Assembly: GCA_043814605.1 (NCBI GenBank)
Contig: JBDRJV010000007.1
Location: forward strand, 67,354 to 131,353
Origin: Candidatus Omnitrophota bacterium
GTDB taxonomy: Bacteria; Omnitrophota; Gorgyraeia; B26-G9
Length of the DNA stretch: 64,000 nt
Direction: 5' to 3'
How positions within the stretch are numbered: the stretch's first letter is position 1; the number at the start of each line of letters is the position of its first letter. The notes beneath the pieces are model-generated. The model ran no database searches and had not been told where the DNA came from. It saw only the letters and a list, made by a program, of their open reading frames with translations. The position numbers and the translations under genes were made by a program. Shown piece after piece: positions 2,213 through 26,186 of the stretch.

Positions 2213-2227
2213 TTTAAGAAAATTGAT

Positions 2228-3334: not shown

Positions 3335-3378
3335 ATATAAAATTTAACCTAAAAAATTATAAAGATAGGGAGGTAATA

Positions 3379-5838: not shown

Positions 5839-7630
5839 GGATCAAAATTTTAATACACCGGTTGAGCTTGATGAAATATTATTAAATGTCAGAAAACCTG
5901 CACGTTATATAGGGCAAGAATATAATGCGGTTTATAAAAAACTGAGTTACAAAAATATTAATTTTGCCCTATGCTTTCCGGATAGTTATGAAATTGGTAT
6001 GAGCCATCTGGGTTTAAAAATTCTTTATAATATTTTGAATAAGCAAGAAGATGTTTATGCGCAGCGTTGTTTTTCGCCCTGGCCGGATATGCAGTTGCAA
6101 ATGCAAAAGCAGAACATTAAATTGTTTAGTTTAGAAACACAAACCCCTTTAAATTATTTTGATATAATCGGTTTTTCCCTGCAATATGAACTCGGGTTTA
6201 CCAATGTTTTAGGAATGCTGGATTTAGCGGGTATGGCTTTACACAGCGAGCAAAGAAAAACAGGCCCCTTGGTAATTGCCGGCGGGCCTTGCTGTTTAAA
6301 TCCGGAACCGATGTATAAGTTTATTGATGCTTTTTTTATCGGAGAATCGGAAGAATTGATATTGGAGTTCTTGAATGTATATCGGCAATTCAAAAAAAAA
6401 TTTCTAAATTTTGATAAAAATAATCAGGATGAATTAACCGCACTTAAAATTGAACTTCTGGAACGCATTGCCAGAATCGAAGGTATTTATGTCCCGCGTT
6501 TTTATACGCAGGATTTTAATCATTCATTGGATTTGATCCCGCAAAAATCTTATCTGCCGAAAAAAATTAAAAGAAGGTTTGTCTCGGATCTAAATAATGC
6601 TGAGTATTTTGAAGCGCCTTGCGTCCCTTATGTTGACATTGTGCATGATCGAATCAGTTTAGAAATTATGCGGGGTTGTCCTAACCGTTGTTATTTTTGC
6701 CAGGCAGGATTTACGATTAATCCCCTGCGTATGCGTAGTGTGGAGAACTTAATATCTATGGCCCGTAAAATATATGCAAATACAGGTTATGATAATATAT
6801 CTTTTTGTTCTCTTTCCAGTGCGAATTATCCTCAGCTTAAAAAATTAATTTTAAAAGTGCATGATTTTTTTAAAGAAAAAGGACTGGGGATTTCTTTGCC
6901 TTCATTACGTGTAGATAAAGAATTTTTGAGTGTAATTTCTTTGATTTCTGATCTTAAAAAAACCGGTCTAACGTTTGCCCCTGAGGCAGGCAGTGGGCGT
7001 TTGCGTAAATTGATTAATAAAAATTTAGATATGGAAAAACTTAGCGAAACAATTTTAACTGCCTATCAAACGGGTTGGCGCAGGTTAAAATTATATTTTA
7101 TGATCGGCTTGCCGACTGAGACAGAAACTGATCTTTTAGGAATTGTCCAGATGATTAATGAATATTCAGAATTAAAAAAACAAGTAGATGGCCGGCCGGC
7201 TCGCGTAAGCGTAGGGATTTCTAATTTTATTCCTAAAGCCCATACCCCATTTCAATGGCTGGGGATGGAAAGAAGAGATCAATTAGGAGTTAAACAAAAA
7301 TTTTTACGCGATCGTTTACTAAAAAGAATATTAGATGTGGATTTCCATGATATAGATATGAGTTTTATTGAGGCATGTTTAGCACGGGGCGATAGGAGCA
7401 TGGCTGCGGTAATTGAAAAAGCTTATTTTCTGGGAGCCAGATTTGATGCCTGGACAAATTTTTTTAATTATAATATATGGCAGGAGGCGTTTGAGAAAAC
7501 CGGGTTAAAGGCAGAGCATTATGTGAATGAAGGCTATGCGCTGGATTGTGTTTTACCTTGGGATCATATTGATTGTTTGATTAAAAAAAATGAACTTAAA
7601 CAATATTACACTAATATTAGCACAGTTTAA
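5831..7630 (+). CDS. B12-binding-domain radical SAM protein (TIGR03960-like; function unknown)
   Basis: CxxxCxxC radical SAM motif (CPNRCYFCQAG); N-terminal B12-binding-like region. The ORF track starts at 5732 and overlaps the kinase, so an in-frame GTG at 5831 overlapping the kinase stop is the more plausible start (start uncertain). Confidence 0.75.
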   Translation: MIKDQNFNTPVELDEILLNVRKPARYIGQEYNAVYKKLSYKNINFALCFPDSYEIGMSHLGLKILYNILNKQEDVYAQRCFSPWPDMQLQMQKQNIKLFSLETQTPLNYFDIIGFSLQYELGFTNVLGMLDLAGMALHSEQRKTGPLVIAGGPCCLNPEPMYKFIDAFFIGESEELILEFLNVYRQFKKKFLNFDKNNQDELTALKIELLERIARIEGIYVPRFYTQDFNHSLDLIPQKSYLPKKIKRRFVSDLNNAEYFEAPCVPYVDIVHDRISLEIMRGCPNRCYFCQAGFTINPLRMRSVENLISMARKIYANTGYDNISFCSLSSANYPQLKKLILKVHDFFKEKGLGISLPSLRVDKEFLSVISLISDLKKTGLTFAPEAGSGRLRKLINKNLDMEKLSETILTAYQTGWRRLKLYFMIGLPTETETDLLGIVQMINEYSELKKQVDGRPARVSVGISNFIPKAHTPFQWLGMERRDQLGVKQKFLRDRLLKRILDVDFHDIDMSFIEACLARGDRSMAAVIEKAYFLGARFDAWTNFFNYNIWQEAFEKTGLKAEHYVNEGYALDCVLPWDHIDCLIKKNELKQYYTNISTV

Positions 7631-7665
7631 ACGCGTATGATTATCCGGTAACCTGTTTTAACTGA

Positions 7666-7694
7666 TTGACTTAATTTTAGTTATATGATATAGT
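7666..7694 (+). promoter_or_regulatory. sigma70-like promoter candidate upstream of pilT1 (TTGACT-17 nt-TATAGT)
   Basis: TTGACT at 7666-7671, 17-nt spacer, TATAGT at 7689-7694, ~35 nt upstream of the pilT1 ATG. Confidence 0.4.
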
Positions 7695-7728
7695 TTTTTC
7701 AACATATCAATTAAAAGGAATTAATAAT

Positions 7729-8802
7729 ATGCCGCTAAAATTGAATAATTTATTGAAAATCATGCTCGATAGAGGGGCTTCTGATTTACATATCCATGCT
7801 TATGCTATTCCGCAAATCCGAATAAACTCACAGCTTGTTGCGCTGGATTATCCAGAGTTTACTCCGGAGCAAAGCAAAGATATTGTTTATCCGTACTTAG
7901 CAGAAGATGAAATTAAAGATTTTGAAAAGGATAAAGAACTAGATACTTCCTTTAGCGATGCCGAACTTTCGGCACGCTTTAGAATGAATGTTTTTTATCA
8001 TAAAGGTGGGGTTTGTGCGGCAATCCGGGCAATCCCAAAAAAAATTCCTGATTTTAGTGAATTAGGGTTGCCGGAGCAGCAAATGGTTCAGATTTGCCGC
8101 AGTAAAAGAGGACTGGTCTTAATGACCGGAGCCACAGGCTCAGGTAAGTCCACAACTTTAGCGTCAATAATCAACCGCATAAATGCAGAGCGTAATTGCC
8201 ATATAATTACGGTTGAAGATCCTGTGGAATTTATTTATACTAATAATAAAAGTATTATTACGCAGCGGGAAATTGGCAAAGATACAAATTCTTTTTCCGG
8301 GGCTTTAAAATATATTCTCCGGCAGGACCCGGATGTGATTTTAATTGGAGAGATGAGAGATTTAGAAACAGTGCAAGCGGCAATGAATATGGCGGAAACC
8401 GGGCATTTAGTTTTTGCCACGCTGCATACATCTGATTGTGTTCAAACGATCAACAGAATTATTGATATGTTTCCCTATCAATCACAATCTCAAGCCCGGA
8501 CACAATTATCCTATGTTTTATTATCAACTATTTCGCAGCAGCTTTTAGCTAAATCGGATAATTCCGGTTTATGTTTAGCCAGTGAATTAATGATTGCGAC
8601 TTTCGGGGTACGGGCAATGATTCGGGAAGAAAAGGTACATCAGATATTTTCTCTGATTCAAACCGGATTGAAAGAAGGGATGTATACAATGAATCATTCG
8701 CTTTATGAATTATACAAAAAGGGGTTAATTACTTATCAGGAGGCATCCGCCCACATAACTGATACTCAGGATTTCAAGAGATTTTTTCAAGGTCCAAGAT
8801 AA
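7729..8802 (+). CDS. pilT: type IV pilus retraction ATPase PilT (paralog 1)
   Basis: 357 aa; Walker A GATGSGKSTT; PilT/PilU-family layout without the GspE N-domain or Zn tetracysteine motif. Confidence 0.85.
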   Translation: MPLKLNNLLKIMLDRGASDLHIHAYAIPQIRINSQLVALDYPEFTPEQSKDIVYPYLAEDEIKDFEKDKELDTSFSDAELSARFRMNVFYHKGGVCAAIRAIPKKIPDFSELGLPEQQMVQICRSKRGLVLMTGATGSGKSTTLASIINRINAERNCHIITVEDPVEFIYTNNKSIITQREIGKDTNSFSGALKYILRQDPDVILIGEMRDLETVQAAMNMAETGHLVFATLHTSDCVQTINRIIDMFPYQSQSQARTQLSYVLLSTISQQLLAKSDNSGLCLASELMIATFGVRAMIREEKVHQIFSLIQTGLKEGMYTMNHSLYELYKKGLITYQEASAHITDTQDFKRFFQGPR

Positions 8803-10318: not shown

Positions 10319-10927
10319 ATGAAAAAGTCAAAAACAAAACAAATCGGAGAAATTCTCATTGAAATCGGGCTAATCAGCCAGGAACAATTAGATAAGGCCT
10401 TAGAAGTTCAGTTAAAAGAGGGTGGTCTGCTGGGGCAAATTTTAATTAAACTGGGTTTTGTGACCCAGGAAGAAATGGAAAAAAGTCTTTTTGAACAGAC
10501 AAGCAATGCGCAAAAACTAGAAAATGCTTTAATTGAAGCGAGTATGATTAGTCCGGAGCAATTACAAAAAGCAAAAAAAGTGTTAGCGGAAGAAGGGGGT
10601 TTTTTAATTGAGAAGATTATTCGCCTGGGGTTTTTAGAAGAAGAAGATTTTGTCAGCACTATGGTTACTCAATACGGATTTCCTTATTTACAATTAACAA
10701 ATTATGAGATTGAAGCGGAATTTGTAAAATTAGTGCCCAAGGAAATTGCCAAGAAATATTGCCTGATCCCGATTGATAAAATAGGGAATATCCTTACACT
10801 GGCCATGATTGATCCTCTTAATGCTGCCGCACAGGATGAAATAAGAAAAATTACCGGATTAAATGTAGAAGTTTTTATTTCAACCCTTTCTGATATTAAT
10901 AATGCGATTAATAAATACTACGCTTAA
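10319..10927 (+). CDS. standalone GspE-N-terminal-domain protein with two tandem MshEN-like 24-aa motifs (putative c-di-GMP receptor)
   Basis: Two motifs matching the MshEN pattern: QIGEILIEIGLISQEQLDKALEVQ and LLGQILIKLGFVTQEEMEKSLFEQ. These are followed by a T2SSE_N-like domain (LVPKEIAKKYCLIPIDKIGNILTLAMIDPLNAAAQDEI...). There is no ATPase domain. Confidence 0.6.
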   Translation: MKKSKTKQIGEILIEIGLISQEQLDKALEVQLKEGGLLGQILIKLGFVTQEEMEKSLFEQTSNAQKLENALIEASMISPEQLQKAKKVLAEEGGFLIEKIIRLGFLEEEDFVSTMVTQYGFPYLQLTNYEIEAEFVKLVPKEIAKKYCLIPIDKIGNILTLAMIDPLNAAAQDEIRKITGLNVEVFISTLSDINNAINKYYA

Positions 10928-10951: not shown

Positions 10952-12667
10952 ATGATGCAAAGTGTTAAAGACAAAATGCTGGAGGTGTTAACGCGTTCTA
11001 ATTTTTTAACCAAAGAGCAATTGGACGAAGCGATCCTGACACAAAAAAAAACCGGTACGCGTTTGAGTGAAGTTTTAATAACCCTCGGCTATATTTCACA
11101 GCGGGATTTAGTGATTGTATTAAGCCAGAGTTTAAATATCCCCCCGATAAATTTAGCCAAAATGAAGATTAATCCGGAAGTTGTTAAAATTATTCCCCGT
11201 GAGCTTGCCGAAAAATACCAGGCAATAGTAGTTTCTAAAATTGGCAAAATATTAACCATTGCCATGGTTGATCCTTTAAATGTTTTGGCGATTGATGAAT
11301 TAAAAGTATTAACAAACTTTACGCTTAAAATTGTTATTGCTTCAGAAGAGCAGTTAAAAGAAGCGATCAGCAATTATTATAGTGTTACGACGAATGCTCA
11401 GATCCGCGGCATTATTGATGACGTAAAAGATATGGATATTGAAATCATTGAAGACAAACTGGAAAAAGAATTTTCGATCAGTTCGCAGGAATTGTTAAGA
11501 GCGGTAGAAGATGCTCCGGTTGTAAAAATTACAAATTTAATTCTCTCGGAAGCAATAAAACTCAAGGCGAGTGATATTTTAATCGAACCGCAGGAAAAAA
11601 GATTACGGATCCGCTATCGTTTAGATGGTATTTTAAAAGAATTTCCTTCCCCTCCCAAATCAATGCAAGAGGCGATTGTTTCCCGGATTAAGGTTATGTC
11701 TATATTGAACATTGCCGAACATCGCCTGCCGCAGGATGGCCGTTTTAAAATTAAACTGCAAAACCGCGAGGTTGATTTTCGTGTTTCAGTTATGCCGACC
11801 AGCCATGGGGAGAAAGTTGCCTTACGTATTTTAGATAAAACCGTGGTTGTTTTAGATATCGATGCTATGGGATTTGAAGAAGCACCGCTTAAAAAAATAA
11901 AAGAGATTTCTTTAGAACCGCACGGAATGATTCTGATGTGCGGGCCTACCGGCAGTGGTAAGTCAACCACCCTTTACAGTATTCTTAAACATATTGATGA
12001 CCCGGAAAAAAATTTATGCAGTGCGGAAGATCCGGTGGAATATCAATTAAAAGGGATAAACCAGGTAAATGTAAATACAGATGTGGGTTTAACGTTTGCC
12101 GGGTCGCTAAGGTCTTTTTTGCGTCAGGATCCGGATATAATTATGGTCGGGGAAATTCGCGATGTGGAGACTTTAGATATTTCGATTAAAGCAGCCTTAA
12201 CCGGTCATTTAGTTTTGAGTACATTACATACGACTGAGGCAGCGGGTGCCATAACCCGAATGGTAAATATGGGGATAGAACCTTTTTTAATTACATCCTC
12301 ATGCCTTCTGGTATGTGCACAGCGTTTAATTCGAAGAATTTGTCCGGATTGTAAAGAACCCTATCCCATTACCGAAGAGCTGCGGAAAGATTTTAAAATT
12401 CCGGCGAATTACAAAGAACTGTATCGAGGCAAAGGCTGTGCTAAGTGCGAAAAAACGGGATATCGGGGCAGGATTGGTTTATGTGAAGCTTTAGTGTTAA
12501 CCCCGGCAATTCGTGATTTAATTATGGAGCGGGTGCAGGAAAATGTGCTTAAAGCCAAAGCCCGGGAAGAGGGCATGAGCACTTTACGCGAAAACGGAGT
12601 GAAAAAAGCAATAAGAGGCATTACCACAATTGAAGAAGTAACCAGGCTAACTGTGGACGATGATTAA
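10952..12667 (+). CDS. pilB: type IV pilus assembly ATPase PilB/GspE family (paralog 1)
   Basis: 571 aa; N-terminal MshEN-like motif (RLSEVLITLGYISQRDLVIVLSQS) and GspE-N domain; Walker A GPTGSGKSTT; tetracysteine Zn motif CPDCK...CAKCEKTGYRGR. Confidence 0.88.
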   Translation: MMQSVKDKMLEVLTRSNFLTKEQLDEAILTQKKTGTRLSEVLITLGYISQRDLVIVLSQSLNIPPINLAKMKINPEVVKIIPRELAEKYQAIVVSKIGKILTIAMVDPLNVLAIDELKVLTNFTLKIVIASEEQLKEAISNYYSVTTNAQIRGIIDDVKDMDIEIIEDKLEKEFSISSQELLRAVEDAPVVKITNLILSEAIKLKASDILIEPQEKRLRIRYRLDGILKEFPSPPKSMQEAIVSRIKVMSILNIAEHRLPQDGRFKIKLQNREVDFRVSVMPTSHGEKVALRILDKTVVVLDIDAMGFEEAPLKKIKEISLEPHGMILMCGPTGSGKSTTLYSILKHIDDPEKNLCSAEDPVEYQLKGINQVNVNTDVGLTFAGSLRSFLRQDPDIIMVGEIRDVETLDISIKAALTGHLVLSTLHTTEAAGAITRMVNMGIEPFLITSSCLLVCAQRLIRRICPDCKEPYPITEELRKDFKIPANYKELYRGKGCAKCEKTGYRGRIGLCEALVLTPAIRDLIMERVQENVLKAKAREEGMSTLRENGVKKAIRGITTIEEVTRLTVDDD

Positions 12668-12688
12668 AAATCAGGGTCAATTATAAAT

Positions 12689-14410
12689 ATGCGCAGAGCA
12701 AAAAAAAGACTGAATGAACTTTTATTAGATTATAATTTAATTGAAGAAAAGGAAGTTGTCCGGGCTTTAGAATTACAGCGTAAGCGGGGTGTGCCTTTAG
12801 CCACAATTTTAGTCGAGGAAAAATTTGTTAAAGAAGAAGATGTGGTTAGTTGTTTTTGCCGGCATTTAAATATTCCTCCGATTACTTTAGCAAAATTTTA
12901 TGGAGCCGAAAAAATTATTAAATTGATTCCCGAACACATTGCCCGGCATTACCGTTTACTTTGTGTTTCTCAGATGGGGAGAATGTTGACTGTGGCGATG
13001 TGTGATCCTTTAAATGTATTAGCAATTGATGATATCAAAGCTTTAACCGGATACGAGGTAACTCCGGTTGTTGCTGGCTTAGCGGATATGAAATTAGCTT
13101 TAGACAGATTTTATCTGGGAAAAGTTGAAGAAATTAAGCCGGAGCAGTCGTTTGATGAATTAGTAAAAGGTTTAGACAGTGAAGATATTGAGATAGTGAG
13201 TAATCAGTCTCAGATTGATATTGGCGAGGTTATTCGTTCCAGCAGTGAAGCACCGATAGTTAAAATTATTGATGCTTTAATTGCGGAATCTTTAATAAAA
13301 AGGGCTTCGGATATTCACATTGAGCCTTATGAAGATGAAATTCGGGTAAGATACCGCATTGACGGCGCGTTAATGCAAGCGGCAGTATTACCGAAAAAAA
13401 TTCAAAACGCTGTTGCCGCCAGACTTAAGATTATGTCTAATTTAGATATTACCCAAAGATTAGTGCCTCAGGACGGCAGGTTTAAAGTAAGGCTGGAGGA
13501 AAAAGAGGTTGATTTTCGTGTTTCAGTTTTGCCGATAAGTTTTGGGGAAAAGGTTGTTATGCGGGCTTTAGATAAATCGAATTTAAGTATTGGGCTGGAA
13601 GCTTTAGGTTTTCTGCCTCAGGCAATGGAGGCATTTCAATATGCGGTAACCCGGCCTTACGGAATGATTTTAGTGACCGGACCCACAGGTTCGGGTAAGT
13701 CAACAACACTTTACTCTGTTTTAAATAAATTAAACAACCCGGAGCGAAATATTATTACGATTGAAGACCCGGTTGAGTATCAGGTTGAGGGGATTACTCA
13801 GGTTCAGGTTAAACCGGACATCGGGCTTACTTTTGCCACAGGGTTACGTTCAATTTTACGGCAAAATCCGGATATTTTAATGGTAGGAGAAATCCGTGAT
13901 TTTGAAACCGCAGATATTGCGGTTAAGGCAGCTTTAACCGGGGCTTTGCTTTTAAGTACATTGCATACCAATGATGCACCGGGAGCAATAACCCGTCTTA
14001 TTGATATGGGGATTGAACCGTTTCTAATTTCCAGCAGTGTAATTGCGGTTGCTGCGCAGAGATTAGCGCGTAAGGTTTGTGCAGCTTGTAAAGAACCGCT
14101 TGAAATACCGCAAGCAGTATTAGACCGTTTAGGCATAAAACTGGATGCAAAAAAAATAAAAGCGTTTAAAGGCAAAGGTTGTGATAAATGTAGTGGCAGC
14201 GGGTACCGGGGCAGGTTTGCGATTTTAGAAGTTATGATTGTAACCGATGCAGTCCGGGAAATGATTATGAAGCGATGCTCGAGTGATGAAATTAAAAGAT
14301 ATGCCCGGAAAGAATTAGGCATGCTTACATTACGGGATACAGGGATTGAAAATTTTATCAGGGGCCAGACGACACTGGAAGAAGTATTAAGAGTAACATC
14401 GAGTGAATGA
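12689..14410 (+). CDS. pilB: type IV pilus assembly ATPase PilB/GspE family (paralog 2)
   Basis: 573 aa; Walker A GPTGSGKSTT; tetracysteine CAACK...CDKCSGSGYRGR; N-terminal GspE-N domain with a degenerate MshEN motif. Confidence 0.88.
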   Translation: MRRAKKRLNELLLDYNLIEEKEVVRALELQRKRGVPLATILVEEKFVKEEDVVSCFCRHLNIPPITLAKFYGAEKIIKLIPEHIARHYRLLCVSQMGRMLTVAMCDPLNVLAIDDIKALTGYEVTPVVAGLADMKLALDRFYLGKVEEIKPEQSFDELVKGLDSEDIEIVSNQSQIDIGEVIRSSSEAPIVKIIDALIAESLIKRASDIHIEPYEDEIRVRYRIDGALMQAAVLPKKIQNAVAARLKIMSNLDITQRLVPQDGRFKVRLEEKEVDFRVSVLPISFGEKVVMRALDKSNLSIGLEALGFLPQAMEAFQYAVTRPYGMILVTGPTGSGKSTTLYSVLNKLNNPERNIITIEDPVEYQVEGITQVQVKPDIGLTFATGLRSILRQNPDILMVGEIRDFETADIAVKAALTGALLLSTLHTNDAPGAITRLIDMGIEPFLISSSVIAVAAQRLARKVCAACKEPLEIPQAVLDRLGIKLDAKKIKAFKGKGCDKCSGSGYRGRFAILEVMIVTDAVREMIMKRCSSDEIKRYARKELGMLTLRDTGIENFIRGQTTLEEVLRVTSSE

Positions 14411-14498: not shown

Positions 14499-15704
14499 AT
14501 GCCGCTATTCAAATATGAAGCAAAGGATGAGCAGGGTAATTCGGTAAATGATACAATTGAAGCAAAAGATCAACTGGTTGCTTTGGATATGCTGCGGGTT
14601 AAAAACCTGGTAATTATTTCGATCAGCGAAATTCAAAAGGCAAAGGGAGCAGCTAAAGTCAGCTCAAAAAAAATTAAACCAGATGAACTGGTTATTTTTT
14701 CCCGGCAATTAGCAACGATGGTTAATGCGGGTATTCCGCTGGTGCAAAGTTTGGATATTTTAAGTGAGCAGATGGAAAGTCCTTCTTTTCAGCATGTAGT
14801 TGCTACAGTACGCAGTGATGTGGAAGCAGGTTCTAGTTTATCCGCAGCTTTAGAAAAACACCCCAAGGTTTTTACGATGTTGTACACAAATATGGTAAGG
14901 GCTGGGGAAACAAGCGGTATGTTAGATGAGATTTTAGACCGTTTAGCTGGTTATTTAGAAAAAACCGGCCAGCTGCAAAGAAAAGTTAAATCAGCGATGG
15001 TTTATCCGGCAGTTGTATCATTAATGGCAGTCGCGATTACTCTCGTATTATTATTAAAAGTTATTCCGACTTTTAAAGAAATCTTTTCAACTCTAGGAGG
15101 TACTTTGCCATTGCCCACACAGATTTTAATCGGTATATCCGATACTTTAAGAGCGTATTTTGTTTATGCAGTAGCTCTATTAATTGCTTTTGGTTTTGCG
15201 ATGATTAAACTTGTACAGACTCCCAAAGGTAAAGAAAGATTTGATCAATTGAAGCTGAATTTGCCTGTATTTGGTATTTTATTAAGGAAAGTGGCTGTAG
15301 CCCGGTTTTCGCGGACTCTTTCTACGCTTATTCGGAGCGGCGTGCCGATTTTAGGTGCATTAGAGATTGTAGGAAAAACAGCGGGTAATGTTGTTATTGA
15401 AGCTGCGGTTGAGAGTGCCAGAGTAGGAATCAGGGAAGGTGAAAGCATTTCTGCTCCTTTAGCCAAGAGCAAGGCATTTCCTCCCATGGTAACAAGGATG
15501 ATTTCAGTAGGTGAAGAATCTGGAGAACTGGAAAAAATGCTTTCTAAAATTGCAGATTTTTATGAAGACCAGGTGGATGCTGCAGTGAGCGGGTTAACCA
15601 GCTTAATTGAACCATTAATCATTGCGTTTTTAGGTATAGTTGTGGGTTCGATTGTTATTGCTATGTTTCTGCCTATATTTAAGATTACAGAACTTATTGG
15701 GTAG
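14499..15704 (+). CDS. pilC: type IV pilus inner-membrane platform protein PilC (GspF family)
   Basis: 401 aa; duplicated T2SSF domains with three TM segments; follows pilB. Confidence 0.88.
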   Translation: MPLFKYEAKDEQGNSVNDTIEAKDQLVALDMLRVKNLVIISISEIQKAKGAAKVSSKKIKPDELVIFSRQLATMVNAGIPLVQSLDILSEQMESPSFQHVVATVRSDVEAGSSLSAALEKHPKVFTMLYTNMVRAGETSGMLDEILDRLAGYLEKTGQLQRKVKSAMVYPAVVSLMAVAITLVLLLKVIPTFKEIFSTLGGTLPLPTQILIGISDTLRAYFVYAVALLIAFGFAMIKLVQTPKGKERFDQLKLNLPVFGILLRKVAVARFSRTLSTLIRSGVPILGALEIVGKTAGNVVIEAAVESARVGIREGESISAPLAKSKAFPPMVTRMISVGEESGELEKMLSKIADFYEDQVDAAVSGLTSLIEPLIIAFLGIVVGSIVIAMFLPIFKITELIG

Positions 15705-15757: not shown

Positions 15758-15786
15758 TTGACGAAGTTTATTTGTTAATGTATACT
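15758..15786 (+). promoter_or_regulatory. sigma70-like promoter (TTGACG-17 nt-TATACT with TG immediately upstream of the -10)
   Basis: TTGACG 15758-15763, 17-nt spacer, TATACT 15781-15786; ~55 nt upstream of the riboswitch-like element. Confidence 0.55.
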
Positions 15787-15844
15787 TTAAATAGAGGCAA
15801 TATATGCATTTTTCTTATATTAGCCCTTTACAGCTGAAAAAATC

Positions 15845-15975
15845 GAAAAAGGCAAACCTGTTGAAAAACAGGGACTCCCGCCAATGGCGGGATCCTGCTG
15901 CAGTTTAGGCAGGAGCAAAGCCGCGGGTCTAAAGGCGATCCTCATAGACAGCCGGGTTACCGAAGCAAAGGGGAA
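15845..15975 (+). ncRNA. c-di-GMP-I (GEMM)-like riboswitch aptamer candidate in the 5' leader of the minor-pilin operon
   Basis: GEMM hallmark segments occur in the canonical order. GGCAAACC (15851-58) is followed by a 6-bp hairpin capped by a GAAA tetraloop (CCUGUU-GAAA-AACAGG). GCAAAGCC lies at 15915-22. CUAAA ... CCGGGUUACCGAAG lies at ~15929-15965. Two extra small hairpins sit between the first and second conserved blocks. Confidence 0.5.
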
Positions 15976-15984
15976 AACCAATGA

Positions 15985-16026
15985 TAGCCGAGCTACCGAA
16001 AAAAAGGTAGTGCGGCTATTTTTTTT
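15985..16026 (+). terminator. intrinsic terminator / putative riboswitch expression platform
   Basis: Imperfect inverted repeat TAGCCGAGCTACC ... GGTAGTGCGGCTA followed by a T8 tract that ends 14 nt before the pilin ATG. Confidence 0.55.
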
Positions 16027-16040
16027 ATGGGGTGAATTAA

Positions 16041-16502
16041 ATGAAAAATAAAAGCGGTTTTACTTTAATTGAGATTTTAGTTTCAGTAGGTATTTTGGCT
16101 ATAGCCTTAACCTCAACCCTACAAATCCTGAAATTTTTAAATGATCTGACTGAGCAAAATAATATTTCTGTAATTTGCACAAATCATAGCGAAGGGATTA
16201 TCAGCGCAATAAGAAACCTAAATTTTGATGATGTTATTTCAGCCTATGATGGCCGGACATTCACAATCCCGGAATTAACAGCTTTAAATATTAATCACAG
16301 CGGATTGATCAGGGCAAATGAAATCGAAGCAAATTTTTTGATCCGGGTTAAAGTTGTTGTCTGCTATCAGCAGAAAAACCGTTTTTTTGGTGAGGATATT
16401 AATTTTAATAATCTTTTAGATAGCGGTGAAGACCTGAATAATAACGGAGAAATAGATTCACCCTGTACTTTTGAAACTGTGATTGTAGATACGGAAAGAT
16501 AA
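16041..16502 (+). CDS. type IV minor pilin / pseudopilin (PilV/FimT-like) with prepilin N-terminal methylation motif
   Basis: N-terminus KSGFTLIEILVSVGILAIAL, i.e. a G|FTLIE prepilin peptidase site plus hydrophobic helix; 153 aa. Confidence 0.8.
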   Translation: MKNKSGFTLIEILVSVGILAIALTSTLQILKFLNDLTEQNNISVICTNHSEGIISAIRNLNFDDVISAYDGRTFTIPELTALNINHSGLIRANEIEANFLIRVKVVVCYQQKNRFFGEDINFNNLLDSGEDLNNNGEIDSPCTFETVIVDTER

Positions 16503-16508
16503 TCAAAA

Positions 16509-17198
16509 ATGAGGCATAAAATGAAATTAATCCCTAAAATAAAATTTAATAAGCAGGGTTTTACAATAATGGAAGCAATCATTTCTTCGAGTATTTTTGC
16601 CGTTGTTATCGGCTCGTTATTTGCAATGCTGATTATTCAAAATAATTTTTTTCAAACTGTAAATGCCAGGACAGACATGTCGCAGACAGCCCGCAAGGTG
16701 ATGAATAATATGGTTAAAGAATTGCGCATTTCTAAAATTGAATCTGTTGATCTTTATGCTCGTCCCCTGCACATCAGCGGAACTGAGGATACTATTAATG
16801 CCACAAGTATTTGTTTTCAAATACCGGTTGATTCTAATCCCGGAGACGGAAATTATAATTTTTTTGATGAATTCGGCCGGGTTGTATGGGGTGCGGATAA
16901 TGTGGATGGTTATAAAATCGAGTATTATTGGGATCAAGAAAATCAGCGGATTTTAAGACGGGTTTGGGATGCATCAGATACCGCTGTTTATGAGAATGTA
17001 ATTGCCGAGAATATTACCGGGTTTCGTATGCAGGGATTTAGCTGGAATTCAGGGGCGCAAACCTATGAATCTAAATCAGGCGGGCCATGCGATGTAGTGG
17101 AAATCACAGTAACTGCGGAAAAAACAAATTTAGGCGGCCGCACTCTGGAAATGCCTATTGTCTATACATTAAAAAACCAGGTTACCTGGCGCAATTAA
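16509..17198 (+). CDS. type IV minor pilin (PilW-like) with prepilin N-terminal domain
   Basis: KQGFTIMEAIISSSIFAVVIG (G|FT.ME class III signal); 229 aa. Confidence 0.75.
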   Translation: MRHKMKLIPKIKFNKQGFTIMEAIISSSIFAVVIGSLFAMLIIQNNFFQTVNARTDMSQTARKVMNNMVKELRISKIESVDLYARPLHISGTEDTINATSICFQIPVDSNPGDGNYNFFDEFGRVVWGADNVDGYKIEYYWDQENQRILRRVWDASDTAVYENVIAENITGFRMQGFSWNSGAQTYESKSGGPCDVVEITVTAEKTNLGGRTLEMPIVYTLKNQVTWRN

Positions 17199-17223
17199 AC
17201 TTTATAAATATAAAGGAGGCGTA

Positions 17224-19962
17224 ATGATGAAGATAGGGAAAAATCAAAAAGGAACTATGCTGATTGCAACCTACATTGTATTATTTGTGGTTATTGTGGT
17301 TGCAGGTTCATATTTTGCTCTTTCTGTAAACAATAATCAAGCAATACTCAAGGAATCAGAAGGCTCAAAAGCATTGAGTTATGCGGAACGCGGTTTAGCC
17401 TATGCTTTTTATGAGTCCTATATTTCCGGCTGGAACTGGTATACGCATAATTGGAATGAAGATAAAAGCCAGCTTTCTCAGTTACCAACAACTGATCAAC
17501 AGATCGCGCGTACAGATTGTTTTTTTAATACAGATGGTTTTTATGAACATGCCAGCGGTGATTTTATGGTCAAAGCATATCCGGATACAACAAGAGAAAA
17601 TGATACAATTGTGCTTTGTAAAGGCAGATACGGCAAAGAGGAAAGAGTTTTAATGCTTTATTTATCCCGCCAGGGCATATATGATTATTTTGTTTATTCG
17701 CCGTATACTTTAGATTTATCACAAGCAGTTGGTGATGATCCCAAGATAAATGGCGGAGGTATTCATAGTAACGGTGATATTATCTTAGAATACGATACAC
17801 GGCTTGAGAATATTTCAGAATTTAGTGCAGGTAAAGATGGCAGTATATATTATGCGTGTACTCAGTATCAGCCGCCGTATATTGCGGATAAGTTTGATGG
17901 AATTATGGATGGCCAGGCGCCGATTCCGCGATTAAGTGATCTTAGTGATTTATACCGGGATGACCGAATTTCTTATTCCGGGCCGTTTGGTTATTATAAG
18001 AATAAAATATGGACTTATAAAACCGATGCTAGCAAATTTGTCTATGACAATATGGATGGCTGGCCAACAGATTCTTTTTTAAATACAGAAAGAAAATTTT
18101 GCGGTAATAATGAAGATCGATATTTGGTAGAGGTTTATCCCGGAGTATTTTATAATGACTATAATACTTGGATAAAACCCTACAGATTGGACGAAGAAGG
18201 TAATCAGATTGAAACAACCTGGTCACAAATTCCTGCGGAGTTGGATGAAGAATGGGCCTGGAGTAAATACGATGATACAAAGGACAAGCCGGGTTACGGA
18301 GCGGCTGTGGATGAGGTTCCGATAGAATTTTATATTCCGGGTGAAGAGAATACAAGGATTATGGTAAATGATACTTACTGGGAAATTAAGGATGATAAGG
18401 TTATTCAGCTTACGCCACCTGCTGTAGGTGATGTTGCGGGTTGGGAAACATTTTATGCTGAGCATCCAAATGCAGCTAAATATTGGGAGATGTTTCAAAG
18501 CCCGGAATTTTGGGATTGTGTTAAAGACGATAGTTTCATCGCAACTTATTTAAATCCGGAAATTGCTGATGGCCGCTATGGAGATGACCGCAGCAACGGA
18601 GGTACAATTTTAGTTAAACACACGAATTCCATGAAGCAGCCCAATGCCTGGCGTCAATTTATAAGCGAGCAGGGGTTAGAAGATATTGTATTTGAGGGTA
18701 ATACCGGCGGAATGTATCTTGAGCCGCCGTGTTTTTCAGTTACATATAGAAACCTTGCAGATAAAGATGGTTTACATATTAAAGCAATTGATGATTCAAT
18801 ACCTGCAGATTATTGGGCATGGAAAGATAAAATGATCGCAAGTATTGATGCTGCAGTTGAAGATATTAATACCCGAGCCGGAGGCAAAGTAGCAGAGAAA
18901 AAAGGTTTTTATAATACTTTTACGAGTAAATGGGTAACGGTATTAGAGCTGGACCTTGAGGCAATGCAGACCTATAATGTGCATCCGAATAATGGCGTGC
19001 TTTATAGTGAGGTGCCGATCAGATTAGTTAATGCCGAAAGGCTGCCGCGTTCAAAACCAAAATACGGGTTTACTGTGCTCTGTGAGGAAAATATTTTCTT
19101 GCAAGGAGATTATAATATTAAAGATAAAGTGGGTGAGTTTGAAACAGAAAATGAATGGGTAACTAGTGCGGTGATTACGAAAAAAAGAGTTTATACGTTT
19201 TCGGATGATTTTTCAGATCCGCAGCATATTCCGGCAACAGAAAATTACCCGAATTATCCTGGACTTTATGTAAAAGAGGTTGATGGAAAATGGGTGGAAG
19301 TTCCGGAATCAACCAAAGGCGGTACGTGGGTGCTAAATTATTTGTTAACTCCTAATGATCCTAAGGAAGATAATTATCGCGAAATTTCGTATGATGAAGA
19401 AGCAAAATTAAAAACGATAATTAAAGCAAAAAACAAGGCCTATCAATCTGTATTTAATGCTTATCAAACAAAAGAAACAAATGATGCCACAGCAACCTGG
19501 GTTTGGGCAGACTCAGGCACAACTTTAACTCAAGGCCTGAAACCGAATAAAGTGACTCAAGATCAGACTTATAATTGTTTGATTGCGGCAAACCGCTGGC
19601 TGGATTATTCTTATTTAAACCGCGGTTGTATTTTAGAAAACTGGGAGTACGGGGATAATCATTTTTACCGCAATTTAAATGGCGCTTATTTTGTTTTAGA
19701 AAAAGAAGGTTTTACAGCGAGTAGTGATGAATTTGTTGATCTTGAAAGCAAGTCCCTTGCGCTTAAGTATCGGGGGAAGTATAACCCCACATATAATGAA
19801 TATTTTATGGTGGATTCTTCTGCATATTGGGCACCGACAAATATTGCCTATGATGTGGCTTTTCGAACCAGAGTCCGGTCTCCGTCAGATGTGTTTATGG
19901 GCGGGGCGCAGTCGATTTGGATTGAAGCCAGCTGTGATTTATTTTATCAGATGAATTTTTAA
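17224..19962 (+). CDS. large PilX-N-terminal-domain protein (putative pilus tip/minor-pilin-associated adhesin)
   Basis: 912 aa. The N-terminus (NQKGTMLIATYIVLFVVIVVAGSYFALSVNNNQAILKESEGSKALSYAERGL) matches the PilX_N pattern (QxGxxLIxxL hydrophobic helix ... AxxxAEAGL). The rest is a large W/Y/D-rich extracellular region with no recognisable catalytic motif. Confidence 0.6.
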   Translation: MMKIGKNQKGTMLIATYIVLFVVIVVAGSYFALSVNNNQAILKESEGSKALSYAERGLAYAFYESYISGWNWYTHNWNEDKSQLSQLPTTDQQIARTDCFFNTDGFYEHASGDFMVKAYPDTTRENDTIVLCKGRYGKEERVLMLYLSRQGIYDYFVYSPYTLDLSQAVGDDPKINGGGIHSNGDIILEYDTRLENISEFSAGKDGSIYYACTQYQPPYIADKFDGIMDGQAPIPRLSDLSDLYRDDRISYSGPFGYYKNKIWTYKTDASKFVYDNMDGWPTDSFLNTERKFCGNNEDRYLVEVYPGVFYNDYNTWIKPYRLDEEGNQIETTWSQIPAELDEEWAWSKYDDTKDKPGYGAAVDEVPIEFYIPGEENTRIMVNDTYWEIKDDKVIQLTPPAVGDVAGWETFYAEHPNAAKYWEMFQSPEFWDCVKDDSFIATYLNPEIADGRYGDDRSNGGTILVKHTNSMKQPNAWRQFISEQGLEDIVFEGNTGGMYLEPPCFSVTYRNLADKDGLHIKAIDDSIPADYWAWKDKMIASIDAAVEDINTRAGGKVAEKKGFYNTFTSKWVTVLELDLEAMQTYNVHPNNGVLYSEVPIRLVNAERLPRSKPKYGFTVLCEENIFLQGDYNIKDKVGEFETENEWVTSAVITKKRVYTFSDDFSDPQHIPATENYPNYPGLYVKEVDGKWVEVPESTKGGTWVLNYLLTPNDPKEDNYREISYDEEAKLKTIIKAKNKAYQSVFNAYQTKETNDATATWVWADSGTTLTQGLKPNKVTQDQTYNCLIAANRWLDYSYLNRGCILENWEYGDNHFYRNLNGAYFVLEKEGFTASSDEFVDLESKSLALKYRGKYNPTYNEYFMVDSSAYWAPTNIAYDVAFRTRVRSPSDVFMGGAQSIWIEASCDLFYQMNF

Positions 19963-20003
19963 TAAGTTAATAAGTTTAATTATAACTAGTGGGGAGGGGA
20001 GAA

Positions 20004-20447
20004 ATGGATAATAAAGTCAGGATCACTTTAATTACTGCAGTTGTGATTTTAGTGATTATCATTACCCTGGGGCTTAGGGATGTGTTTAAAACCGCAACTG
20101 TGGCAACAGAAAAAAACCAATCTGAGTTAACATCAGATGACCGAAGAATTAGTTATCAGGAGAGGGAAAATGCACCAAAAATAAAAGCAAAAGCAACGCT
20201 CAGTTCAGACGAGTTGTATTTTCCTAAAAAAGATAAACCGGATAAAGTCGATCCAGAGGCAATAAGTAAGGTTAAGCATGCGGCGGAAAATTCTTTAGAT
20301 CCTGAGCAGGTTAATACACCTGTTGCAATCAGGGCAGATTCAGATGAGCTGCGCTTGCCGGAAGGGGTGGACACGCTGGATGCGGATATTTATTTGGATG
20401 CAGAAGGTAATCTGATTATCTCAAATAATCCGCAGAAAAAAATTTAA
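20004..20447 (+). CDS. hypothetical N-terminally membrane-anchored protein (pilus-locus associated)
   Basis: Strong RBS GGGGAGGGGAG before the ATG at 20004 (the tracked ORF begins at an upstream GTG, 19989); single TM then a charged extracytoplasmic region. Confidence 0.5.
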   Translation: MDNKVRITLITAVVILVIIITLGLRDVFKTATVATEKNQSELTSDDRRISYQERENAPKIKAKATLSSDELYFPKKDKPDKVDPEAISKVKHAAENSLDPEQVNTPVAIRADSDELRLPEGVDTLDADIYLDAEGNLIISNNPQKKI

Positions 20448-24908: not shown

Positions 24909-26186
24909 ATGGAAAAGTTAATTATTATTTTACCGACTGTAGGAATTTTGTTTTTAATAATCCTAGGAATGCTGGCACCGCTCATGGCCCCGCCGGCATT
25001 TCTGGCCACTCTGCCTTTTATTGCCTTAGCAATTTATTTATACAAGAAAAAAAACAGCCTGAAAAAAGAATTAGAGGAAATGCGGCTTTCTTACCGGCAG
25101 AAAAAAATAGAAATTGAAAAAGAAATCATAAAAAAAGACAAAAGGCAGTCTGAACAGTTTAACGAATTAAAAAAATTCGGCCGGGATCTTTCCGGAGCTT
25201 TAAATAAAGGGGAATTATTGCGTTTGATTGCCAATACGTTTCAAAAACTAACTGTTTCTAAATCCGGAGAGAGTCAGTGTTTTTTATTAAGCAATGATTT
25301 AGGCTCAGATGAATTTATCTATGAAGTGGGAGATAATTTTGATAGTAATATCCTAAAATCATTACGTTTTAAAACCACGGATGAGATCATTCAAAGCGTA
25401 GTGACATCTAAAAAAGTGCATACCTTTATCAGTGATATCTTTAGCGGAGATTCAAATATAACTTATTTTTTTAAATCAGAACATTTGGCAACACTGGCGC
25501 AGCTGGATTCTATGGCATTAATCCCCCTAATTTTAGAGGATGAGGTGTGGGGAATTATTGTAATTTTTTGCCATGAGGATGCAGCGGAAAACATAAAAAA
25601 AGAAGAAGAATTTTTTGAGCTATTGATGGCCCAGGCATCGATTGCTTTAGGCAGTGCAATTCACCGCGGTTTAGCCAGTGTGGATAGATTAACGCAATTG
25701 TATAACCGGACTTTTCTGCAAAAACGCATGAATGAGGAAATTGAATTTTGTAACCGGCAATTTTTACCAATGAGCCTGATGATGTTAGATATTGACCATT
25801 TTAAAGAAATCAATGACCTTTACGGGCATCAAGAGGGGGATATGGTTTTAAAAAAAATTGCCCATATTATCAGTAAAAATGTCCGGTTAACCGATTTAGT
25901 CGCGCGTTATGGGGGCGAGGAATTTGTGGTTGTTTTGCCGGGGATTGCGGAAACAACATTTGGAAAATTTTCCATTGCGAAAAGATTATGTGAATCTATT
26001 GCCAAGGAAGACTTTATTATCAGTGAGGAAAAAAAGATAAAAGTAACCGTAAGTATTGGGGTTGCGCTGCGCCGCTATCCTGATGATAAAGCACAGGGCA
26101 TGCAGGAATTAATCAAAAAAGCCGATACCCTGCTCTATAAGGCCAAAAATTCCGGCCGTAATCAAGTTTGTTATAGTGCAGATTAA
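24909..26186 (+). CDS. membrane-anchored diguanylate cyclase (GGDEF domain, GGEEF active site) with a GAF-like sensor region
   Basis: Two N-terminal TM helices; RYGGEEF active site; I-site-like RxxD upstream; DxLT..NR motif typical of GGDEF domains. Confidence 0.82.
   Translation: MEKLIIILPTVGILFLIILGMLAPLMAPPAFLATLPFIALAIYLYKKKNSLKKELEEMRLSYRQKKIEIEKEIIKKDKRQSEQFNELKKFGRDLSGALNKGELLRLIANTFQKLTVSKSGESQCFLLSNDLGSDEFIYEVGDNFDSNILKSLRFKTTDEIIQSVVTSKKVHTFISDIFSGDSNITYFFKSEHLATLAQLDSMALIPLILEDEVWGIIVIFCHEDAAENIKKEEEFFELLMAQASIALGSAIHRGLASVDRLTQLYNRTFLQKRMNEEIEFCNRQFLPMSLMMLDIDHFKEINDLYGHQEGDMVLKKIAHIISKNVRLTDLVARYGGEEFVVVLPGIAETTFGKFSIAKRLCESIAKEDFIISEEKKIKVTVSIGVALRRYPDDKAQGMQELIKKADTLLYKAKNSGRNQVCYSAD

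Follow-up and report, generated by a model that had tools for sequence, protein, structure and literature searches.

What does the leader between pilC and the first minor-pilin gene of a type IV pilus cluster sense in a bacterium of the phylum Omnitrophota, and in which direction does it switch? The stretch studied here comprises 64,000 nucleotides of Candidatus Omnitrophota bacterium (assembly GCA_043814605.1, contig JBDRJV010000007.1, positions 67,354 to 131,353, forward strand) and is hereafter called the window; all coordinates are those of the window unless another sequence is named. An earlier note had proposed that the leader holds a GEMM-like riboswitch for cyclic di-GMP (c-di-GMP) with a terminator. 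Judging by its sequence, we identify the leader element as a class I c-di-GMP riboswitch (GEMM-I, Vc2-type) with a transcription terminator. It carries a structured insert next to the ligand pocket, its terminator is made from what looks like a second copy of the aptamer's own 3' half, and we lean towards an OFF switch.

The identification starts from an Rfam scan of the 64-kb window, in which RF01051 (c-di-GMP-I) matched positions 15841-15964 (+) with 50.3 bits against a gathering score of 35 (E = 7e-7). This was the sole Rfam match above gathering score in the window, and together with the canonical ligand-contact bases it bears out the GEMM/c-di-GMP-I identity for which the earlier note had suggested a comparison with this very model. 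The aptamer has a G+C content of 54%, against 36.7% for the window. As with every sequence feature listed in the earlier note, the three conserved blocks lie where they had been placed and in the order first described, namely GGCAAACC at 15851-15858, GCAAAGCC at 15915-15922 and CUAAA...CCGGGUUACCGAAG running up to 15965, and the 6-bp stem with a GAAA loop placed after the first block is CCUGUU-GAAA-AACAGG at 15857-15872. The aptamer is made up of the following parts.

15841-15964, + strand: RF01051 match, the aptamer core (cmscan, full model 1-87, with a 42-nt insertion put in the first hairpin).
15824-15845, + strand: extended 5' strand of helix P1, CCCUUU...GCU...UCG, complementary to CGA-AGC-AAAGGG at 15961-15972.
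15846-15853, + strand: junction J1/2 and base of P2, AAAAA-G-GC, placed by the model alignment and invariant in 11 relatives.
15857-15872, + strand: distal hairpin of P2, 6 bp, with the GAAA tetraloop at 15863-15866, supported by folds and co-variation.
15873-15875, + strand: GAC, which forms the 3' side of the conserved internal loop; Vc2 C44 corresponds to C15875.
15876-15914, + strand: lineage-specific insert of two abutting hairpins (15876-15892 and 15893-15914), fold -23.4 kcal/mol, z = -4.3.
15915-15929, + strand: GC of the P2 base, AAA linker and 5' strand of P3 (X), AGCC-G-CGG-GUC, in invariant columns.
15930-15946, + strand: internal loop of P3 (CUAAA, the tetraloop-receptor side) and distal hairpin, placed by the model alignment.
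15947-15972, + strand: aptamer 3' half, hereafter copy 1, with GAC-AG-CCG-GGUU, A15959, C15960 and the 3' strand of P1, CGAAGCAAAGGG.

The same element recurs behind pilC in a close clade (L001-L007, L010 and L011) and, with canonical 89-nt aptamers of about 73 bits, in the more distant Omnitrophota L014 and L020. No GEMM-I element was found after pilC in L012, L013, L015-L019 and L021-L059 (Omnitrophota, Sumerlaeota, Elusimicrobiota), in a scan that left out L060-L080. A metagenome scan for the two-copy pattern described below added L082 (partial) and two paralogous copies (L086a and L086b) on the 684-kb contig L086, besides three duplicates; two further hits, L081 and L084, were discarded as unrelated chance tandem repeats. 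Co-variation was counted in a gap-free alignment of 139 columns and 11 sequences.

In this alignment P1 exceeds the length of the model, being an interrupted helix of about 12 bp that is 85.2% paired in the relatives, and its pair 8:86, the first beyond the bulged AA, co-varies (UA 4, CG 3, AU 1, UG 1, unpaired 2). The base of P2 is formed by G15852-C15916 and C15853-G15915, while its distal stem is 98.5% paired with four of its six pairs changed on both sides among the relatives. P3 is 99.1% paired, and as seven of its ten pairs never vary, co-variation speaks neither for nor against it.

The ligand pocket can be read through Vc2 numbering, which we carried over by way of the model alignment: G20 corresponds to 15851, C44 to 15875, A47 to 15917, G83 to 15951, A91 to 15959 and C92 to 15960. 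The equivalents of G20, C44, A47, G83 and C92 are invariant in the 11 complete sequences. In Vc2, G20, A47 and C92 contact c-di-GMP, and the interhelical Watson-Crick pair C44-G83 is "universally conserved among GEMM riboswitches" (PMC4744006). Both bases of that pair are present and invariant here (C15875 of the GAC and G15951 of the bulged AG), and may pair. The linker GC-AAA-GCC is likewise in place, with AAA between the hairpins and bulges in the second hairpin, and the AAA linker and the GAAA loop are as in the original GEMM description (PMC1950547).

Position 20 is a determinant of which ligand is selected, c-di-GMP or cyclic GMP-AMP (cGAMP; PMC9262584). This base is G (15851) in the window and in all 11 relatives, not A, which argues for c-di-GMP over cGAMP, and we rejected the GEMM-Ib class of 3'3'-cGAMP riboswitches on that ground. 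The c-di-GMP-I-GGC variant (RF03167) was also rejected, with 44.8 bits against a gathering score of 59 and with an A at the A47 equivalent (GCAAAGCC) where the model, GCGAAgCc, wants a G; RF03167 beats RF01051 on E-value in a narrower search, and both belong to clan CL00126. We would read the "GGC" of its name as the bases at positions 20, 47 and 92. With ordinary c-di-GMP-I bases in the binding site, an RF03167 score below gathering and relatives that lack the insert, the proposal of a variant or divergent GEMM class had to be given up. In two of the insert-free relatives, L007 (5326-5411) and L010 (5330-5415), clan competition gives RF03167, with 71.8 and 67.7 bits against the gathering score of 59. 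They too carry A, not G, at the A47 equivalent (GACGCAAAGCC), and automatic annotation would mislabel them as the GGC variant.

The two extra hairpins that had been noticed between the first two blocks, relative to the Vc2-type consensus, are real and occupy 15876-15892 and 15893-15914. The first GEMM hairpin consists of a 2-bp and a 6-bp stem around a highly conserved 3-nt internal loop and ends in a GNRA loop (PMC1950547). All of these parts are present in the window (2-bp stem, AAA/GAC loop, 6-bp stem, GAAA loop), with 39 nt inserted in the 3' side of the internal loop. Inserts of 39-116 nt occur in the window, L001-L006, L011, L082 and L086a/b, and none in L007, L010, L014 and L020. Their site is exact: on one side lies C44, the last base of GAC/GGC, and on the other G45, with the GC closing the 2-bp stem. 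The ligand pocket is two base pairs away. The inserts are mutually unalignable, yet nine of nine, when folded alone, give two hairpins that abut and together take up the whole insert, end to end, with z-scores from -0.7 to -7.6 (at or below -2.4 in six of the nine), and the second hairpin is always closed by (U/C)CC...GG(A/G). The insert gave no Rfam match of its own and costs the model score about 20-35 bits. Since the ligand-contact bases and the expression platform are identical with or without it, we read the insert as an expansion with structure of its own that is tolerated, makes a four-way junction out of the internal loop and would be neutral for function. Close relatives carry the same riboswitch without it, which argues for a peripheral expansion and not for a new ligand class.

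Downstream of the aptamer, the expression platform occupies three overlapping or adjoining features.

15973-15980, + strand: short A-rich linker (GAAAACCA).
15981-16007, + strand: copy 2 of the aptamer 3' half, AUG-AU-AG-CCG-AGCU-AC-CG-AAAAAAAGG.
15984-16026, + strand: intrinsic terminator, with the 5' arm at 15984-15997, the loop at 15998-16005, the 3' arm at 16006-16019 and the U-tract at 16019-16026.

The terminator hairpin (ATAGCCGAGCTACC / GGTAGTGCGGCTAT, 15984-16019) runs into a U8 tract that stops at 16026, with the ATG at 16041. The terminator-type platform of the earlier note, with a U-tract ending 14 nt before the ATG, is thereby confirmed. In the relatives the hairpin is 84.4% paired, with compensatory changes at 110:130 (CG 9, UA 2) and 103:137, and its predicted pair probability at full length is about 1.0 in all species.

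A second version of the aptamer 3' half runs from just upstream of the terminator through its 5' arm and loop into the first 2 nt of its 3' arm; in it, AUGAUAGCCGAGCUACCGAAAAAAAGG (15981-16007) repeats AUAGACAGCCGGGUUACCGAAGCAAAGGG (15944-15972). The two copies share the order of their parts, namely the P3 3' strand with its AG bulge, A-C and the P1 3' strand, and are identical at 22-24 of 37 positions in every species. The copy-2 core GCCGAG(C/U)UACCGAA is invariant in 11 sequences, and copy 2 matches the RF01051 consensus of the 3' half at 17.3 of 21, copy 1 at 16.0 of 21. By itself, similarity over a 15-mer would be weak evidence for a second copy, and the weight lies in the conservation: the 15-mer search hits copy 2 at two mismatches, along with two other two-mismatch sites in the window. 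These lie at 13642-13656 (-), in pilB, and at 18287-18301 (+), in the gene of a 912-aa protein (four matches to AGCCGGGTTACCGAA in all, against 0.9 expected). We considered the near-copies at 13642 (-) and 18287 (+) as related elements and rejected them, as their flanks show no further similarity; they are probably due to chance.

On paper, both copies can close the aptamer. The pairs of the copy-1 closure plus terminator are compatible in 91.1% of alignment cells and those of the copy-2 closure in 92.2%, against 30-47% for slid partners. Under closure by copy 2, the CC of the linker is able to pair with the GG of CUAAAGG (pairs 60:96 and 61:95). Moreover, when the copy-2 tail in the terminator loop supplies the 3' side of P1, the first pair is Watson-Crick in 11 of 11 sequences (UA 6, CG 4, AU 1), and from the alignment we see no other reason why the terminator loop should follow the 5' strand of P1. 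Whereas copy 2 does not vary, the terminator strand opposite it does, to the point of mismatch (pair 109:131 is unpaired in seven of 11), which points to a second constraint on copy 2. The anatomy, the conservation, the co-variation in P1, P1' (the P1 of the copy-2 closure), P2 and the terminator, and the formability of both closures are observed; that copy 2 pairs with the aptamer 5' half in the cell is what we infer from them.

Three other arrangements were tried and set aside. Pairing of copy 1 with the terminator 3' arm is 82.5% pair-compatible, shows no co-variation and is indistinguishable from shuffles (500/500); we take its compatibility as a by-product, because copy 1 resembles copy 2. 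A pairing of copy 1 with copy 2, the antiterminator type of the Cd1 riboswitch, can be drawn by hand with nine of 12 pairs around a 2x2 mismatch, and it is in no minimum free energy (MFE) fold. Lastly, we dropped the idea that the tetraloop receptor of copy 1 is degenerate and that copy 2 is the real sensor. Opposite the CUAAA strand, the 3' side of the receptor reads xUA/GAC (4-6 nt long) with copy 1 and nAU/GAY, like the 11-nt motif, with copy 2, and the former resembles the 3' side of the Vc2 receptor, which we take to be GUA/GG.

In which direction does such an arrangement switch? We somewhat favour the reading that c-di-GMP promotes termination. The decision would be which copy closes the aptamer 5' half (P1 5' strand, P2 and P3 5' strand). 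Closure by copy 1 (15947-15972) would create the ligand-binding aptamer and leave copy 2 to pair with the 3' arm, so that the terminator forms, while closure by copy 2 (15981-16007) would tie up the terminator's 5' arm and loop together with two bases at the start of its 3' arm, so that it does not. In the presence of c-di-GMP the copy-1 aptamer would be locked and the terminator would form; in the empty aptamer copy 2 would displace copy 1, at least on P1, and the polymerase would read through. High c-di-GMP would accordingly mean less expression of two minor pilins and the 912-aa protein encoded downstream.

The evidence for the OFF direction lies mainly in the layout. According to PMC9262584, the aptamer of the ON switch pilM cannot form together with its terminator, whereas the OFF switch Cd1 accommodates both, in competition with a transient antiterminator that later relaxes to the terminator. 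In the window, no nucleotide belongs to both the Rfam aptamer (ending at 15964, with P1 reaching about 15972) and the terminator (starting at 15984), and the MFE fold contains the two. They thus coexist as in Cd1, which favours OFF, and the OFF-type layout of PMC9262584 is found complete, with a candidate antiterminator that uses the 5' strands of P1 and P3 and is 92.2% pair-compatible. The earlier proposal of an ON switch, in which anti-termination was to come from mutual exclusion of aptamer and terminator, is not supported as it was put, because the two can form together. An ON switch is possible only by a route that had not been seen before, in which the aptamer is closed by copy 2, that is, by the terminator 5' arm.

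The order of transcription fits the OFF direction as well. Copy 1 is transcribed about 40-50 nt ahead of the decision point, long before copy 2. Before the 3' arm is made, the energy difference between the copy-2 and copy-1 closures, dG(A2-A1), ranges from -11.5 to +6.2 kcal/mol, with copy 2 the better in six of 11 species; in the full-length RNA every species favours copy 1 plus terminator, by 3-19 kcal/mol. In these models, closures that are close in energy early on and give way to copy 1 plus terminator later form a kinetic-switch pattern such as that of Cd1 (PMC9262584). Under the OFF reading every element has a necessary role, copy 1 closing the sensor, copy 2 serving as switching strand and the 3' arm as terminator strand. 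Copy 2 is missing from the outgroups L014 and L020. While the 3' arm is still unmade, the loop and 5' arm of their terminators pair with the G20 region and the P1 5' strand, with gains of 6.8 and 4.8 kcal/mol, and the L014 antiterminator is a perfect 7-bp helix, CCAUUGA:UCAAUGG. This antiterminator is incompatible with the ligand-bound aptamer, and outgroups and window clade share the principle of a terminator loop that has its complement in the 5' strand of P1.

Several observations weigh against an OFF switch. In the window the copy-2 closure is predicted to be 6.2 kcal/mol worse than that by copy 1 and has a ligand-free pair probability of 0.00, so that in the model the antiterminator of the unliganded RNA would be weak without help from tertiary contacts. 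The predictions differ between species, the probability of pairing between X and copy 2 (X:Y2) being 0.99 in L001, 0.79 in L002 and 0.87 in L010, and with both P3 and copy 2 invariant this pairing lies beyond the reach of a co-variation test. A conserved C.A mismatch (pair 48:108, unpaired in nine of 11) weakens the copy-2 helix, which would be unexpected in an antiterminator, and the refolding barriers are heterogeneous (6.5-18 and 4.7-13 kcal/mol). Copy 2 also keeps the C92 and G83 equivalents, the AU before GAU and the bulged AA, all needless for a mere antiterminator; the retention of pocket bases and the slightly better consensus match would fit a ligand-binding role of the copy-2 closure. 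Known type IV pilus riboswitches are ON switches, namely Cdi-2-4 before pilA1 (PMC6366702) and pilM (PMC9262584), and the MshEN domains on PilB suggest that c-di-GMP favours piliation. We did not take the direction from thermodynamic or barrier modelling, whose outcome depends on the species and stays within the error of the energy model.

These same points feed the alternatives. In the first of them, a serious rival though we consider it unlikely, the copy-2-closed aptamer is the sensor of an ON switch: c-di-GMP would lock that closure and block the terminator, and copy 1 would be a built-in decoy, holding the 5' half in the absence of ligand and so ensuring tight termination. Retention of the C92 and G83 equivalents in copy 2, with a receptor-like AU and a better P1, would be accounted for. 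The layout, in which the 3' side of the second hairpin doubles as terminator 5' arm, would be the classical ON one of GEMM RNAs; the terminator overlaps the 3' side of the second hairpin in 78 of 322 GEMM instances, which are predicted to be ON (PMC1950547). The C.A mismatch and an A-U-rich, bulged P1' would leave the unliganded copy-2 closure fragile, as expected of a ligand-gated antiterminator, and in the window that closure needs extra stabilisation to form at all. The pilus precedents (PMC6366702, PMC9262584) and the MshEN-bearing PilB point the same way. However, copy 1 is made first and its pocket is complete (A91, C92 and G83 are invariant), so that the ligand would be caught in the conformer that terminates; only about 20-25 nt of transcription would be available for both ligand binding and the replacement of copy 1 by copy 2; every member conserves copy 1, which this model would make dispensable; and the platforms of the outgroups are OFF-type. 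A latch strikes us as improbable; here c-di-GMP would bind to both closures and fix the one in place at the moment of binding. Binding early, at high c-di-GMP, would then fix copy 1 and lead to termination, binding later, at intermediate levels, would fix copy 2 and allow read-through, and without ligand the terminator would invade. It is the only model that explains why pocket and tertiary-contact bases are kept in both copies, and the closures are close in energy before the 3' arm appears, but it is purely inferential, would require finely tuned rates and has no precedent that we could find in the literature, and the estimates of barriers and probabilities scatter too much to back it. If it were true, two interchangeable 3' halves with opposite outputs would give a non-monotonic (band-pass) or timing-dependent response to c-di-GMP, and the switching strand would be a full aptamer half, a distinct expression-platform logic conserved in an Omnitrophota clade and duplicated in L086.

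Two further alternatives leave the competition between copies aside. The AUG at 15981 opens a mini open reading frame (15981-16010, +; AUG-AUA-GCC-GAG-CUA-CCG-AAA..., M[ITA]AELP[KN]) that is present in all 11 sequences, has nine codons in the window and is preceded in all 11 by a Shine-Dalgarno-like AAGG/GGGG 6-8 nt upstream of the AUG. A leader-peptide attenuator, in which a ribosome on this M-[I/T/A]-A-E-L-P-[K/N] frame covers the terminator 5' arm and blocks termination, again with OFF behaviour in the presence of ligand, is very improbable in our view. AUG, frame and the purine-rich stretch 6-8 nt upstream are kept in 11 of 11 sequences, the stop falls in the terminator loop in seven of 11, and the AAGG/GGGG is the distal 3' strand of P1 and hence exposed when P1 is open. 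Yet GCC, GAG and CCG have no third-position change and thus no synonymous variation, the lone CUA to UUA change is compensated in the terminator 3' arm, and the frame runs from seven to more than 17 codons with a variable stop; together, these features argue that the constraint on this region acts at the RNA level. The copy of the aptamer half accounts for AUG, for AAGG and for UAA, and a ribosome would have to load and translate while the polymerase covers only about 45 nt. Equally far from probable is that the element senses another ligand (3'3'-cGAMP or an unknown one), or that the insert has disabled the aptamer and a constitutive terminator yields a short stable RNA. The insert does sit two base pairs from the pocket, between C44 and G45, the score is 50 bits against 73 for insert-free relatives, and L014 and L020 have a second promoter after the terminator. 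Against another ligand stands the G at base 20, the c-di-GMP-type selectivity base (PMC9262584, PMC4744006); against a disabled aptamer stand the invariance of the contact bases in 11 members with very different inserts, which indicates continued selection on binding, and the single platform common to insert-bearing and insert-free members. Having weighed these alternatives, we keep to an OFF switch in which copy 2 acts as switching strand as the somewhat better account.

The riboswitch lies in the 336-nt intergenic gap between pilC (14499-15704) and the first prepilin gene (ATG at 16041), in a transcribed leader of about 248 nt. The remaining features of the leader and the regulated genes are as follows.

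15758-15786, + strand: sigma-70-type promoter, TTGACG-17 nt-TATACT (TTGACG at 15758-15763, TATACT at 15781-15786), with 10/12 consensus matches.
15796-15825, + strand: 5' stem-loop that opens the transcript, from folds; its terminal CC overlaps the first CC of the P1 5' strand.
16029-16043, + strand: Shine-Dalgarno-like GGGGUG and ATG of the first regulated gene.
16041-20447, + strand: regulated operon of four genes, whose order is repeated behind the riboswitch in L086.
16041-16502, + strand: prepilin-type protein of 153 aa with a prepilin N-terminal methylation motif.
16509-17198, + strand: prepilin-type protein of 229 aa with a prepilin N-terminal methylation motif.
17224-19962, + strand: 912-aa protein of no recognised family.
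19989-20447, + strand: 152-aa protein without a family match.

A TTGACA-N17-TATACT promoter is kept in all relatives at equal distance, which together with the 10/12 match in the window agrees with the good sigma-70 promoter claimed before. The stem-loop at the 5' end is conserved in position and not in sequence across the relatives (L001, L002, L003 and others); it may be a transcript-stabilising hairpin or may stack on P1. That the riboswitch precedes an operon with two prepilin-type proteins and a large protein was borne out, while the label "PilX-N" of the earlier note was not: for the 912-aa protein, Pfam and NCBIfam gave no match even at relaxed thresholds, nor did PADLOC or the PDB sequences. 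The N-terminus of the large proteins (912-956 aa) is hydrophobic and pilin-like (KGTMLIATYIVLFVV). For the first prepilin (153 aa) an exact-sequence look-up gave no record. The four genes are probably a pilus-tip or adhesion module.

By Pfam, the neighbourhood is a diderm type IV pilus cluster that runs from two PilT-like ATPases, a receiver protein, a standalone MshEN protein, two PilB (each with MshEN) and PilC to the leader; then come the prepilins of 153 and 229 aa, the 912-aa and 152-aa proteins, PilS, PilR and two further pilins, followed by a GAF-GGDEF protein, PilM, PilO and a secretin. Besides the riboswitch, c-di-GMP components are the standalone MshEN protein (202 aa; 10319-10927, +), the two MshEN-PilB paralogues (10952-14410, +) and the GAF-GGDEF cyclase (24909-26186, +), whose GGEEF motif is intact at residue 335. 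MshEN on both PilB copies and on the 202-aa protein, and a GGEEF cyclase between the pilins and pilM, are thus where the earlier note had them. This set suggests local c-di-GMP signalling dedicated to the pilus. The closest PilC sequences, 75-87% identical, all come from metagenome-assembled genomes of Candidatus Omnitrophota.

Some relatives vary the arrangement. In L086, pilC is followed by riboswitch a, four genes (159, 245, 956 and 157 aa), riboswitch b and two more genes (940 and 180 aa); the second large-protein paralogue stands directly behind its own riboswitch copy, and both large proteins (1178-4000, -, and 4964-7834, -) are 44-45% identical to the 912-aa protein of the window. L006 (3791-7015) and L004 have an extra four-gene module (136, 205, 567 and 135 aa) between pilC and the riboswitch, which lies about 3.8 kb from pilC; no second riboswitch was detected ahead of the extra module. 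In L014 (5377-5560) and L020 (5414-5600), a second promoter, TTGACA-N17-TATACT-like, stands after the aptamer and terminator, and behind it come a hairpin and a gene like that of a major pilin (MLKLRGKHGFTLVEIM...), so that there the riboswitch-terminator unit may act on upstream read-through or yield its own short RNA.

How much of this is new? The riboswitch class, its ligand and the control of type IV pilus genes by riboswitches are already known, and in that sense the basic call is annotation. The insert after C44, the terminator made from a second 3'-half copy and the occurrence in Omnitrophota appear to be undescribed in the literature searched, where we found nothing on insertions in this GEMM hairpin or on riboswitches in Omnitrophota. 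Our findings place c-di-GMP-I regulation in Candidatus Omnitrophota, an uncultured phylum, and give a regulatory handle on a conserved four-gene module of two minor pilins and a 912-956 aa protein, with two large-protein paralogues under two copies of the riboswitch in one genome (L086). The tolerance of 39-116 nt near the pocket should be useful for riboswitch engineering and for covariance-model searches. A terminator made from a second 3'-half copy makes strand exchange between equivalent closures the likely switching step, and offers a compact natural system for studying co-transcriptional strand displacement.

How, then, does the element compare with known systems? With the type 1 c-di-GMP-I riboswitch Vc2 of Vibrio cholerae (RF01051) it shares the three-helix junction, GGCAAACC...GAAA...GGGAC / GCAAAGCC / ...AGCCGGGUUACCGAA, as well as G20, A47, C92, C44-G83, the AAA linker and a site in the 5' untranslated region (PMC4744006; PMC1950547); it differs by its 39-nt two-hairpin insert (four-way junction), its interrupted P1 of about 12 bp and its phylum, Omnitrophota. 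The c-di-GMP-I-GGC variant (RF03167) has clan CL00126 in common with it, whereas the window scores 44.8 bits, below 59, and has A in place of the model's G. With the pilM GEMM-Ib 3'3'-cGAMP ON switch of Geobacter it shares the fold family, a type IV pilus gene downstream and a terminator, and the copy-2 closure and the terminator rule each other out as in pilM and the 78 of 322 overlapping GEMM instances (PMC9262584, PMC1950547); in contrast to pilM, base 20 is G and not A, and there is an extra complete 3' half upstream (copy 1), none being described for pilM. Cdi-2-4, before pilA1 of Clostridioides difficile, likewise puts type IV pilus genes under c-di-GMP control through a terminator (PMC6366702), but it is a c-di-GMP-II (class II) riboswitch before a major pilin, experimentally ON and in a Gram-positive host. 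The OFF switch Cd1 (Cdi-1-3, before flgB of C. difficile) has in common with our element the coexistence of aptamer and terminator with a competing transient antiterminator (PMC9262584, PMC6366702), and in both the stable full-length state is aptamer plus terminator. The genes behind the window element are pilins and not flagellar genes, and its direction is the presumed one. While the switching strand of Cd1 pairs with the 3' (A) strand of the aptamer, that of the window copies the 3' strand and would pair with the 5' strands.

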